From the NCBI GenBank assembly GCA_024572335.1, contig GCA_024572335.1_3052.1: DNA of 64,000 nt. One strand, given 5' to 3'. Below, piece by piece: positions 62,694-63,522 of the stretch. Source of the stretch: a phage. Numbering within the stretch: the first letter of the stretch is position 1; every line of letters starts with the position of its first letter. Under the pieces are notes generated by a model that worked only from the letters and a program-made list of their open reading frames with translations, did not search any database and was not told the DNA's origin. A program made the translations under genes and the position numbers.

Positions 62694-62770
62694 TGGTCGA
62701 GACAGAAGGATTCTAACCTTCAACCTACGGATTAGAAGTCCGTTGCTCTATACAATTGAGCTATGCCTCG
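62694..62770 (-). tRNA. tRNA-Arg (anticodon UCU)
   Basis: Hand-folded cloverleaf: acceptor CGAGGCA/TGTCTCG, anticodon stem ACGGA/TCCGT, loop CTTCTAA, CCA encoded. Confidence 0.85.
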
Positions 62771-62777
62771 TATTTTG

Positions 62778-62849
62778 CGGACGTGATAGGATTCGAACCT
62801 ATAACCAATCGCTTAACAGGCGATCGCTCTGCCATTGAGCTACACATCC
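62778..62849 (-). tRNA. tRNA-Asn (anticodon GUU)
   Basis: Acceptor GGATGTG/CACGTCC, D-stem GCTC/GAGC, anticodon stem ATCGC/GCGAT, loop CTGTTAA, T-loop TTCGAAT; CCA not encoded. Confidence 0.8.
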
Positions 62850-62853
62850 AAAT

Positions 62854-62940
62854 TGGTGGGGAGTGGTGGAGTCGAACCACCCGAGTCGCAATGACAATGA
62901 ATTTACAGTCCACACCGCTACCTCTACGGGATAACTCCCC
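62854..62940 (-). tRNA. tRNA-Tyr (anticodon GUA), long variable arm
   Basis: Acceptor GGGGAGT/ACTCCCC, anticodon loop CTGTAAA, variable arm TGTCATTGCGACTCG similar to E. coli tRNA-Tyr; CCA encoded. Confidence 0.75.
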
Positions 62941-62949
62941 AAATTAATT

Positions 62950-63024
62950 TGGTGGCCCTGGGTGGAATTGAACCACCATCTGGCGATTATGAGTCGCTTG
63001 CTTGAACCTTCCAGCTACAGGGCC
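62950..63024 (-). tRNA. tRNA-Ile (anticodon CAU, lysidine-type as in T4) or Met
   Basis: Acceptor GGCCCTG/CAGGGCC, anticodon loop CTCATAA, T-arm GGTGG-TTCAATT-CCACC; CCA encoded. Confidence 0.75.
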
Positions 63025-63025
63025 T

Positions 63026-63101
63026 TGGTGCTGATTAACGGAATCGAACCGCCGACCTTCTCATTACAAGTGAGTTGCTCTACCTACTGAGCTAAATCAG
63101 C
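63026..63101 (-). tRNA. tRNA-Thr (anticodon UGU)
   Basis: Acceptor GCTGATT, D-stem GCTC/GAGC, anticodon loop CTTGTAA, T-loop TTCGATT; CCA encoded. Confidence 0.85.
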
Positions 63102-63106
63102 AAAAC

Positions 63107-63196
63107 TGGCGGAGGCGATAGGATTTGAACCTATGAGTCGCCGGAGCGACTGCCGGTTTTCAAGACCGGTGCATTAAACCACTCTGCCACGCCTCC
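63107..63196 (-). tRNA. tRNA-Ser (anticodon UGA), long variable arm
   Basis: Acceptor GGAGGCG, anticodon stem CCGGT/ACCGG, loop CTTGAAA, long variable arm; CCA encoded. Confidence 0.85.
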
Positions 63197-63198
63197 AG

Positions 63199-63272
63199 TC
63201 TCCATACAAGGATTTGAACCTTGGACCTCCTGATCCCAAATCAGGCGCTCTACCAAACTGAGCTACACGGAG
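63199..63272 (-). tRNA. tRNA-Pro (anticodon UGG)
   Basis: Acceptor CTCCGTG, anticodon stem CCTGA/TCAGG, loop TTTGGGA, T-loop TTCAAAT; CCA not encoded. Confidence 0.85.
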
Positions 63273-63282
63273 TAAATTAAAT

Positions 63283-63356
63283 TGGAGCGGATAATGAGAA
63301 TCGAACTCACATCATCAGATTGGAAGTCTGAGGTAATGCCATTATACGATATCCGC
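63283..63356 (-). tRNA. tRNA-Gly (anticodon UCC)
   Basis: Acceptor GCGGATA, anticodon stem TCAGA/TCTGA, loop CTTCCAA, T-loop TTCGATT; CCA encoded. Confidence 0.85.
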
Positions 63357-63361
63357 AAATT

Positions 63362-63448
63362 TGGTGCGAGAAGTGGGACTCGAACCCACAAGGAAATCAT
63401 TCCGCAGCATTTTAAGTGCTGTGCCTTTACCAATTTGACCATTCTCGC
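63362..63448 (-). tRNA. tRNA-Leu (anticodon UAA), long variable arm
   Basis: Acceptor GCGAGAA, anticodon stem CAGCA/TGCTG, loop CTTAAAA, long variable arm, T-loop TTCGAGT; CCA encoded. Confidence 0.85.
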
Positions 63449-63449
63449 G

Positions 63450-63522
63450 CTGGGAATAAAGGACTCGAACCTTTGCATCCTGGAATCAAAATCCAGTGCC
63501 TTACCAACTTGGCTAATTCCCA
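63450..63522 (-). tRNA. tRNA-Gln (anticodon UUG)
   Basis: Acceptor TGGGAAT/ATTCCCA, anticodon stem CTGGA/TCCAG, loop TTTTGAT; CCA not encoded; separated from tRNA-Leu by 1 nt. Confidence 0.85.

Follow-up and report, generated by a model that had tools for sequence, protein, structure and literature searches.

Bacteriophage T4 is the textbook reference for the tRNA locus of T4-like phages (Tequatrovirus), yet it carries a minority form of it. In T4 (NC_000866) the order is Gln-Leu-Gly-Pro-Ser-Thr-Ile-segB-Arg-rnaD-rnaC, with eight tRNA genes and neither tRNA-Tyr nor tRNA-Asn. A ten-gene cluster is already known, its order and its relation to the segB gene of T4 having been published in 2008: RB3 and RB1 (AJ884578, AJ884577; Brok-Volchanskaya et al. 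2008, PMC2330249), as well as RB5 (KM606995), share with the phage DNA analysed here all ten tRNAs, their order and their anticodons. In RB3 and RB5 the array is followed by rnaD and rnaC, and segB is absent. T2L (AJ880101) has the block CAU-Tyr-Asn-Arg-trna.2 ORF-rnaD-rnaC, also without segB; however, a "trna.1" ORF stands in place of tRNA-Thr, leaving nine tRNAs, and its tRNA-Arg is of the RB3 type and its tRNA-Gln of the T4 type.

Two further arrangements are relevant. T6 (MH550421) has the order Gln-Leu-Gly-Thr-Met-Tyr-segB-Arg at the same genomic position as our locus, but it carries segB and T4-type CAU and Arg alleles, and lacks Pro, Ser and Asn. Eleven-tRNA clusters of Tequatrovirus (e.g., those of ph0021, OP557970, and Yersinia phage ZN18) contain the ten genes of our locus in order plus a trna.2-type ORF, but differ in having tRNA-His(GUG) as an eleventh gene and, between Asn and Arg, a spacer of 114 nt. 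Some of these clusters encode a SegB-like endonuclease, 51% identical to T4 SegB, between His and Arg. A rule by which the presence of tRNA-Asn implies the absence of an endonuclease was considered and rejected, as 11B_SA_NWU has both tRNA-Asn and such a gene (51%) between His and Arg.

The ten-tRNA array and its downstream region

We analysed a stretch of 64,000 nucleotides (hereafter the window), which is approximately 96–97% identical to the nearest deposited genomes and whose source phage is not T4. ARAGORN, run on the whole window, calls exactly ten tRNA genes, all on the minus strand between 62694 and 63522, in the transcriptional order Gln(UUG), Leu(UAA), Gly(UCC), Pro(UGG), Ser(UGA), Thr(UGU), CAU, Tyr(GUA), Asn(GUU) and Arg(UCU). 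The Rfam tRNA model (gathering score 29 bits) matches nine of the ten genes at 59–74 bits, with E-values of 1e-11 to 1e-15. The 3′ ends, read from the sequence, show an encoded CCA in Leu, Gly, Ser, Thr, CAU, Tyr and Arg, which is absent from Gln, Pro and Asn. The genes are separated by 1–10 nt; in transcriptional order the first four spacers are C (1 nt), AATTT, ATTTAATTTA and CT, and the remaining five GTTTT, A, AATTAATTT, ATTT and AAAATA. An initial annotation of this DNA had proposed ten tRNAs with this order and these anticodons, the same three genes without CCA, and spacers of 1–10 nt; all of this is borne out, including the calls of Tyr and Asn by prediction software, with the anticodons expected, which it had named as the check. 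The genes are as follows.

63449..63522, minus strand: tRNA-Gln (UUG), without CCA (discriminator G, a single C, then Leu); ARAGORN, Rfam 67.4 bits
63362..63448, minus strand: tRNA-Leu (UAA), CCA encoded; ARAGORN, Rfam, 3′ end read
63283..63356, minus strand: tRNA-Gly (UCC), CCA encoded; ARAGORN, Rfam; 99–100% identical to T4 and RB3
63198..63272, minus strand: tRNA-Pro (UGG), without CCA (discriminator A, CT, then Ser), as in T4
63107..63196, minus strand: tRNA-Ser (UGA), CCA encoded; ARAGORN, Rfam; 100% identical to RB3, RB5 and T2L
63026..63101, minus strand: tRNA-Thr (UGU), CCA encoded; ARAGORN, Rfam; 95% identical to T4
62950..63024, minus strand: CAU tRNA, CCA encoded, T2L/RB3 allele; ARAGORN, Rfam, 3′ end read
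62854..62940, minus strand: tRNA-Tyr (GUA), long variable arm, CCA encoded; ARAGORN, in Rfam a match to the clan member tRNA-Sec only
62777..62849, minus strand: tRNA-Asn (GUU), 3′ end G73-C-A-A and not G73-C-C-A; ARAGORN, Rfam 74.1 bits
62694..62770, minus strand: tRNA-Arg (UCU), CCA encoded; ARAGORN, Rfam 71.1 bits

Compared with RB3 and RB5, the CAU, Ser, Leu and Gly genes are 100% identical, Gln 99%, Tyr 98% and Asn 97%; compared with T2L, CAU is 100%, Tyr 99% and Asn 97% identical. The Gln allele is only 88% identical to that of T4, T6 and T2L, from which it differs in the anticodon stem, while tRNA-Leu is 100% identical in T4, T6, RB3, RB5 and T2L. The Arg gene is a third allele, common to RB32 and 81% identical to that of RB3 and RB5; it has the T loop TTAGAAT and a D loop without GG, and folds into a clean cloverleaf in structure prediction. 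RB3 and RB5 also encode the CCA of Asn, unlike the window.

The CAU tRNA is labelled Met by ARAGORN, and the T2L copy, to which it is 100% identical (as it is to the RB3 gene), is annotated as tRNA-Met in AJ880101. We rejected this label on the basis of matches in E. coli and of the acceptor stem. Its best match is a PGAP-annotated tRNA-Ile in all 12 of the E. coli records sampled across the ranking, at 76–87% identity, the matches being full-length in 11 of the 12 and found at a median of two places per genome. The identity to E. coli K-12 tRNA-Ile(CAU) is 79%, and the two anticodon stem-loops agree at 13 of 15 positions. Furthermore, the sequence reads GGCCCTG...CAGGGCC and contains C4:G69 and C5:G68, the identity base pairs of E. 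coli TilS (PMC11947777). These features suggest that the gene most likely encodes a tRNA-Ile2 of the lysidine type, and the earlier assignment as Ile(CAU) is to be preferred to the ARAGORN label.

Downstream of the array we find the following features.

62325..62675, minus strand: 116-aa ORF (plus stop), homologue of T2L "trna.2", between Arg and rnaD; from the ORF list
62210..62328, minus strand: rnaD (species 2 stable RNA) homologue, approximate ends mapped from T4/T2L; blastn
62064..62203, minus strand: rnaC (species 1 stable RNA) homologue, approximate ends; T4/T2L annotations, blastn
61990..62013, minus strand: terminator-like hairpin followed by a T run, after rnaC; terminator scan
61435..61939, minus strand: 157-aa ORF of the RB32ORF133c type, absent from T4; ORF list, blastn against T4

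The 116-aa ORF, whose ATG is preceded at a distance of 8 nt by a GAGG ribosome-binding site, belongs to phrog_3355 (E=3e-53) and is approximately 96% identical to T2L trna.2 when the two translations are compared by eye. This 351-nt trna.2-type ORF separates Arg from rnaD, whereas in RB3 and RB5 Arg abuts rnaD; the 157-aa ORF after rnaC is likewise extra with respect to these two phages. The ORFs adjacent to the array have no match in Pfam, and the families to which PHROGs assigns them are all of unknown function. The array itself is free of terminator-like sites; the first lies after rnaC, and this hairpin is likely the end of the tRNA transcription unit. A second copy of it lies after the 157-aa ORF (61435–61458), the two flanking copies matching at 34 of 36 positions. 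A sigma-70 promoter scan of 61300–64000, with a tool that does not cover T4 middle and late promoters, gave 6 sites compared with 8.3 expected from shuffled sequence, a result no better than chance, and therefore no promoter is named.

Relation to T4 and distribution among T4-like phages

The cluster lies at the position that it occupies in T4, from trna.2-4/ipI to e.8, and its Gln-to-Thr part is 88–100% identical to that of T4. By blastn, window 63005–64000 (the 5′ end of Ile through Gln, plus the trna.2 ORF) is 94.7% identical to T4, and window 61981–62325 is 92.8% identical to T4 rnaC/rnaD. On the other hand, window 62326–63004 shows no T4 homology in this comparison, and positions 3170–4014 of the T4 locus are unmatched. 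Homology is lost some 20 nt into the CAU tRNA gene (63005) and is regained at rnaD (62325); T4 carries segB where the window has this block. The alleles within the block are also different: in a global alignment no more than 61% of the aligned positions of the CAU tRNA are identical to T4 Ile, and the identity of Arg to T4 Arg is 18% (local alignment). In addition, the CCA of Ser and Ile is encoded in the window and missing from T4. The window thus has neither segB between Ile and Arg nor the T4 Ile and Arg alleles that go with it in a T4-type cluster, and the ORF list holds no endonuclease-sized ORF in 62694–63522.

These results bear on how the two additional genes came to be there. The initial annotation correctly stated that T4 has eight tRNAs, to which this phage adds Tyr and Asn, but it held that the two genes had been inserted between Ile and Arg of a T4-like eight-tRNA cluster, making the phage a distinct T-even lineage with a broader codon supplement. 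T4 does lack both genes, the source phage is not T4, and it uses Tyr and Asn codons above the E. coli level. However, a simple insertion would leave the flanking genes as in T4, whereas here the entire 62326–63004 block is non-homologous, its CAU (≤61%) and Arg (18%) genes are other alleles, and segB sits at the T4 site. Moreover, the same cluster occurs in RB3, RB5, T2/T2L-type phages and hundreds of other records. Finally, the change has been observed experimentally in the opposite direction, namely the conversion of the Tyr-Asn allele into the T4 allele: SegB cuts preferentially inside the tRNA-Asn of T2L, RB1 and RB3, and in T4 × T2L crosses its homing replaces the Met/Tyr/Asn/Arg block, excluding approximately 1250 bp (PMC2330249). 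Since SegB cuts tRNA-Asn and overwrites the block, the eight-tRNA state of T4 is most likely the derived one, having arisen by SegB homing over the allele found here, and we regard an insertion of Tyr and Asn as very unlikely.

The distribution of the two forms was estimated in a phage collection; a search of IMG/VR for a 33-nt tRNA-Leu pattern had returned three contigs only, too few for a census. The counts are BLAST word matches and represent lower bounds, in a collection that contains many re-sequenced or near-duplicate genomes. The 3′ end of Asn is found in at least 346 phage records and the T4 Ile-segB-Arg block in at least 126, while the Gln-Leu-Gly core occurs in at least 447–520 records and the exact Asn-to-Arg junction in at least 113. 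The complete ten-gene order is also present, according to annotation and uniform ARAGORN calls, in RB3 (AJ884578), RB5 and 310Ecol104PP, the last at 98.8% identity. The ten-tRNA form is therefore the commonest among T4-like phages and the eight-tRNA version of T4 the exception. As T4 carries the minority form, having more tRNAs than T4 is neither a lineage marker nor an innovation, and the claim of a distinct T-even lineage does not stand. In the window all genes from the trna.2-4/ipI side to rnaD-rnaC-e.8 are on one strand, and CAU-Tyr-Asn-Arg follows Thr directly, with no segB; the array is very probably the tRNA operon of a T4-like phage of the segB-free RB3/T2L type, not a new arrangement.

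Codon demand and host defence

The likely function of the array is that of a co-transcribed tRNA operon which tops up the tRNAs of the host; co-transcription, processing and physiological role are inferred, in part by analogy with T4. The ten genes would be transcribed as one precursor, whose 5′ ends would be cut by host RNase P and whose 3′ ends would be trimmed by host exonucleases, and the Gln, Pro and Asn tRNAs would be completed by the host CCA-adding enzyme. In the infected cell, the mature products may then supplement the tRNAs of the host. The eight that T4 also has are expected to read A-ending codons, used at 1.6–13 times the E. coli level in the late genes of this AT-rich phage, and the Tyr and Asn tRNAs would serve amino acids used 1.3–1.7 times more than in E. 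coli. In addition, the array may cushion the loss of individual tRNAs to defence nucleases of the host.

Codon usage agrees with a supply function in part. In the window genes Tyr accounts for 4.53% versus 3.07% in the E. coli sample and Asn for 5.57% versus 4.28%, and the codons AGA, ATA, TAT and AAT are used 4.5, 3.1, 2.1 and 2.3 times as often. In RB5 late genes the corresponding ratios are 1.71 for Asn and 1.39 for Tyr, compared with 10 for AGA, 13 for ATA, 4.4 for GGA, 4.2 for ACA and 4.0 for TCA. The broader codon supplement proposed initially is hence plausible, but the excess of Asn and Tyr (1.3–1.7 times) is modest next to the 4–13 times of the codons served by the T4 set. Furthermore, Lys is the most over-used amino acid of the phage (2.0 times), yet tRNA-Lys is absent, while the eleven-tRNA relatives have added a tRNA-His at a usage of 0.5 times. 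Demand by itself thus fails to predict which tRNA genes are present.

The tRNA-Tyr gene deserves separate consideration. In Rfam it is found only through the clan member tRNA-Sec (30.9 bits), and in its single-sequence minimum-energy fold the D arm and the anticodon arm of the cloverleaf are not formed. We considered that it might be a pseudogene, given its poor Rfam placement, and rejected this possibility on the identity (87 of 87 nt, 100%) to the tRNA-Tyr of T6, which is expressed and detected by northern blot (PMC13096335). The T6 gene has been linked to the defence system Septu: its over-expression rescues infection, T6 deleted of the tRNA region is more Septu-sensitive, and T4, which has no tRNA-Tyr, cannot escape (PMC13096335). 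The T6 tRNA-Tyr is described as relatively unstable, and Septu cleaves the phage Tyr tRNA too, which means that any protection comes from dosage. Indeed, wild-type T6 with a single copy is still restricted, and escape required gene amplification, driven by segB, a gene missing from the window phage (PMC13096335). Judged on these published experiments, for tRNA-Tyr a role against host defence would be at least as well supported as that of a codon supplement (PMC13096335).

One may suppose that the extra tRNAs (Tyr and Asn, and His in the eleven-tRNA relatives) are mainly counter-defence spares, codon matching being secondary, and that they replace or out-titrate host tRNAs cleaved by Septu and retron-Eco7 (Tyr) or by the AriB nuclease of PARIS (Asn, Thr). 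The identity of the Tyr gene to the T6 tRNA whose dosage decides Septu escape (PMC13096335) speaks for this; of the four tRNAs with a GUN anticodon, three are those for Tyr, Asn and His. The usage of His in late genes (0.5 times that of E. coli) is such that demand cannot explain the added tRNA-His. In addition, AriB cleaves E. coli tRNA-Asn(GUU) at U36AAUC|C41, and a change at position 39 of tRNA-Lys abolishes its cleavage (PMC12409363); the window Asn, in our own numbering, reads U36-A-A-G39-C40-G41, unlike the cleaved E. coli tRNA, and with G39 the UAAU motif is missing. Nevertheless, Septu cuts the phage Tyr tRNA as well and restricts single-copy wild-type T6 without amplification, escape from PARIS requires a resistant tRNA-Lys, which the window phage does not have, and the defence experiments concern phages other than this one and tRNAs other than its tRNA-Asn. 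Supply and defence are also not mutually exclusive. We therefore put forward a mainly defensive purpose of the extra genes only tentatively, as a possibility somewhat below even chances. The locus is a good natural system for the question of codon demand versus defence evasion, the window phage carrying the exact Septu-relevant tRNA-Tyr, but without segB.

The 3′ end of tRNA-Asn

The missing CCA of tRNA-Asn is due to a single C-to-A change at window position 62776, one of only five differences that separate the 829-nt array from that of its closest relative. The variant 28-mers were found in none of the phage records and the canonical ones in at least 346, and all six of the other Asn-bearing loci examined read GCCAAAT. 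The change falls within the following site.

62773..62799, minus strand: counterpart of the 27-bp preferred SegB site of T2L tRNA-Asn, derived from PMC2330249 and the T2L sequence

The canonical site is GGTTCGAATCCTATCACGTCCGCCAAA, whereas the window counterpart ends in ...GCAAAA. The two match at 26 of 27 positions, the exception being position 24, which belongs to the CCAR element adjoining the cut point. The site was derived from the published description, and the derivation reproduces the five reported differences from the Ser site, i.e., G6, A16, G18, A26 and A27 (PMC2330249).

The loss of this CCA is probably an artefact or a neutral private mutation, i.e., either an error of sequencing or a C-to-A change of recent date, without meaning for the lineage. 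It agrees with the absence of the variant from the phage records and from the six loci, and the 3′ end of the gene could be repaired by the host; the Pro, Ser and Ile genes of T4 are likewise without CCA. Against it stands the invariance of the position in all other cases, which makes a change there at least unusual. The host CCA-adding enzyme can restore the 3′ ends of tRNAs that lack an encoded CCA, and the loss would for this reason be tolerable also if the change were a homing-resistance mutation, shielding the Tyr-Asn-Arg block from segB phages in co-infection. Such a role, suggested by the location of the mismatch, is highly improbable. Potential overwriters of the block would be segB-carrying phages such as T4, T6 or RB32.

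Gene content of the array and identity of the CAU tRNA

Across the full 64 kb of the window, ARAGORN called exactly ten tRNA genes, all on the minus strand, within 62694-63522. In transcriptional order these are Gln(UUG), Leu(UAA), Gly(UCC), Pro(UGG), Ser(UGA), Thr(UGU), a CAU tRNA, Tyr(GUA), Asn(GUU), and Arg(UCU), separated by spacers of 1-10 nt. Nine score 59-74 bits with the Rfam tRNA model (gathering score 29); the sole Rfam match of tRNA-Tyr is the related tRNA-Sec model (30.9 bits). Direct reading of the 3' ends shows that CCA is encoded in Leu, Gly, Ser, Thr, CAU, Tyr, and Arg, and not in Gln, Pro, and Asn. 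The gene number, order, anticodons, absent CCAs and spacing of the initial annotation are thus all confirmed, Tyr(GUA) and Asn(GUU) being both called with the anticodons assigned there. In T4, Gln, Pro, Ser, and Ile lack an encoded CCA; unlike T4 Ser and Ile, the Ser and CAU tRNAs carry it in the window and in RB3/T2L.

The CAU tRNA is labelled Met by ARAGORN, and the identical T2L gene is also annotated as Met. Twelve E. coli records were taken from points throughout the ranking; in all 12 the gene's best match was a PGAP-annotated tRNA-Ile (76-87% identity, full-length in 11), and the median number of matching places in a genome was two. It is 79% identical to the K-12 gene (13 of the 15 anticodon stem-loop positions match) and contains C4:G69 and C5:G68, the pairs by which E. 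coli TilS distinguishes Ile2 from Met (PMC11947777). The Met label is outweighed by these matches and pairs, and Ile(CAU), the identity initially proposed, would be the better call. Tyr and the 3' part of the CAU gene (62850-63004) are ~96% identical to tRNA genes of another group, phages of 135-140 kb (FFH2, APECc02, HdK5, Alma and others), and tRNA-Tyr is 85% identical to that of T5, which suggests that tRNA genes may have been exchanged between phage genera.

Mosaic relationship to T4 and distribution of the block

Tyr and Asn had been interpreted as insertions between Ile and Arg genes shared with T4. We compared the window with T4 positions 68000-75000 by blastn. Identity to T4 is 94.7% for window 63005-64000, which holds the 5' ~20 nt of the Ile gene, Thr through Gln, and a trna.2 ORF, and 92.8% for 61981-62325, which corresponds to T4 rnaC and rnaD; the intervening 62326-63004 has no counterpart in this T4 region. 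At this place T4 has the 3' remainder of its Ile gene, segB (which encodes a homing endonuclease) and its own Arg gene. In the window, the CAU tRNA ends in a different 3' part and is followed by Tyr, Asn, an Arg(UCU) unlike that of T4, and an ORF of 116 aa. The CAU tRNA shares at most 61% of positions with its T4 counterpart (global alignment), and the Arg tRNA shares 18% with T4 Arg (local alignment). A second non-T4 segment, 61461-61980, contains a 157-aa ORF. The window is a mosaic with respect to T4, not the product of an insertion.

The ten-tRNA arrangement is already known and common, clusters of the RB3/T2L type having been described by Brok-Volchanskaya et al., 2008 (PMC2330249). RB3 (AJ884578) and RB5 carry the same ten genes in the same order, followed by rnaD and rnaC; 310Ecol104PP has the same order (98.8% identity to the window over 1.2 kb); and in T2L (AJ880101) this CAU-Tyr-Asn-Arg block is likewise present, with the 351-nt ORF, there called trna.2, ahead of rnaD. 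ARAGORN calls were uniform across all of these loci. Compared with RB3/T2L gene by gene, CAU and Ser are 100% identical, Tyr 98-99%, and Asn 97%; T6 tRNA-Tyr is 100% identical to that of the window, and the Arg gene matches the RB32 allele. Other relatives differ: T6 has Gln-Leu-Gly-Thr-Met-Tyr-segB-Arg, without Pro, Ser, and Asn; RB32 has eight tRNAs, with segB; and the 11-tRNA phages add tRNA-His. The annotated T6 tRNA-Thr (T6 locus L003, 2467-2541) receives no ARAGORN call, and its identity to the window Thr is only 86%.

The Gln-Leu-Gly core is at least 80% covered in about 447 phage records, the same number that cover a 25-kb stretch of the window; these and the following counts, from word-based BLAST, are lower bounds. 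The Asn 3' end (30-nt probe) occurs in 346 records, the full block including the ORF in 259, and the exact Asn-to-Arg junction in 113, while the T4 Ile-segB-Arg block occurs in 126, many of them T4 re-sequences. Even as lower bounds, these counts make the Tyr/Asn-bearing form the majority and the T4 form the minority. The distinct T-even lineage initially proposed is contradicted by the Asn 3' end in 346 records and by the same cluster in RB3, RB5, and 310Ecol104PP.

Two tRNA-Gln(UUG) alleles (window 63449-63522) are in circulation, with anticodon arms CTGGA-TTTTGAT-TCCAG in the window and RB3, and TAGCA-CTTTGAC-TGCTA in T4, T6, and T2L; four of the five stem pairs differ, all stems being fully paired, as do loop positions 32 and 38. 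Over 1.6 kb there are 35 differences between the window and its closest relative, and 11 of them fall within one 50-nt patch (62231-62280) of the homologue of rnaD, a stable RNA.

SegB homing and the 3' end of tRNA-Asn

SegB cuts preferentially within tRNA-Asn of T2L, RB1, and RB3; in T4 x T2L co-infection, inheritance of segB is nearly 100%, and ~1250 bp of T2L, comprising Met, Tyr, Asn, Arg and two ORFs, are excluded (PMC2330249). Therefore, the window allele is of the recipient, segB-free type, and the eight-tRNA state of T4 is most simply the product of homing, the opposite of the gain over T4 initially assumed. From the description in PMC2330249 and the T2L sequence we derived the 27-bp SegB site GGTTCGAATCCTATCACGTCCGCCAAA, which departs from the Ser site at the five positions reported (G6, A16, G18, A26, and A27).

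The 3' end of tRNA-Asn is ...GTCCGCAAAAT in the window, against ...GTCCGCCAAAT in all six of the other loci with an Asn gene. This single C-to-A change at tRNA position 75 (62776, minus strand) converts the encoded CCA to CAA and accounts for one of the five differences that separate the 829-nt array from that of the closest relative. Using a probe in which base 62776 lies inside every 28-mer, we found the variant in none of 50,697 phage records and the canonical form in 346. Given these counts and the six canonical loci, the loss of CCA is either private to this sequence or an error, and does not characterize a lineage. Its location in the CCAR element, at SegB-site position 24, permits reading it as a candidate homing-resistance mutation, which we consider improbable.

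In the window Arg(UCU) (62694-62770), the T loop is TTAGAAT, position 56 being A rather than C, and the D loop, AATTGTATA, lacks the usual GG; a compensated U19-A56 tertiary pair may form. The T-loop change disrupts the SegB core motif GGTTCRANTCC, and in RB32 the same allele adjoins segB. Within the genus, Arg(UCU) occurs as no fewer than three alleles that are unrelated or divergent. Between tRNA-His and tRNA-Arg of an 11-tRNA cluster that retains Asn, Escherichia phage vB_EcoM_11B_SA_NWU (locus L014, 574-1194) encodes an endonuclease of 206 aa that shares 51% identity with T4 SegB and has the same C-terminal 42 aa, an arrangement pointing to a second SegB-like homing endonuclease with another site in the tRNA operon.

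Possible roles in codon supply and counter-defence, and probable processing

With window genes and an E. coli K-12 sample called by one method, Tyr accounts for 4.53% vs 3.07% and Asn for 5.57% vs 4.28% of codons, TAT and AAT being used at 2.1x and 2.3x the E. coli level. In the annotated late structural genes of the ten-tRNA relative RB5, Asn reaches 1.71x and Tyr 1.39x, while codons of tRNAs shared with T4 are far more skewed (ATA 13x, AGA 10x, GGA 4.4x, ACA 4.2x, TCA 4.0x, and TTA 2.9x). These ratios make the broader codon supplement initially attributed to Tyr and Asn plausible, though a modest one. Supply also leaves two features without explanation: Lys use is 2.0x, yet tRNA-Lys is absent from the array, and the tRNA-His of 11-tRNA relatives is not accounted for by codon demand, since His use in RB5 late structural genes (L015) is 0.5x the E. 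coli level. In one such relative (ph0021, locus L005, 1949-2138), tRNA-His and a 114-nt spacer lie between Asn and Arg.

Septu cuts tRNA-Tyr in the variable loop; over-expression or amplification of T6 tRNA-Tyr rescues infection, a T6 tRNA-region deletion is more Septu-sensitive, and T4, without Tyr, is unable to escape (PMC13096335). By analogy with these independent experiments on a Tyr identical to that of the window, the tRNAs may have a second role in counter-defence. The E. coli targets of PARIS AriB are tRNA-Lys, Thr(UGU) and, with weaker cleavage, Asn(GUU), cut at U36AAUC|C41 (PMC12409363). The window tRNA-Asn has G39 and G41 (our numbering) at the corresponding positions, and we infer only that they may confer AriB resistance.

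The ten genes are co-oriented, three of them without CCA, and no terminator-like site occurs from the start of the array until the hairpin after rnaC (61990-62013). By analogy with established T4 biology, the array would yield one polycistronic precursor, with 5' ends cleaved by host RNase P and 3' ends trimmed; a host enzyme would add CCA to Gln, Pro, and Asn, host TilS would form lysidine on the CAU tRNA, and the mature tRNAs would sustain phage translation. Two terminator-like hairpins flank the 157-aa ORF absent from T4:

61435-61458, minus strand, terminator-like hairpin on one side of the ORF
61990-62013, minus strand, terminator-like hairpin on the other side, after rnaC

They are nearly identical (34/36 nt, CTTAGCCC[T/C]AGCCGAAAGGTTGGGGCTTTTT[G/A]GTAT), and the RB32 annotation of the homologous ORF mentions a '34 bp imperfect direct repeat'. 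The arrangement suggests that the ORF was inserted here and that the rnaC terminator was duplicated in the process.
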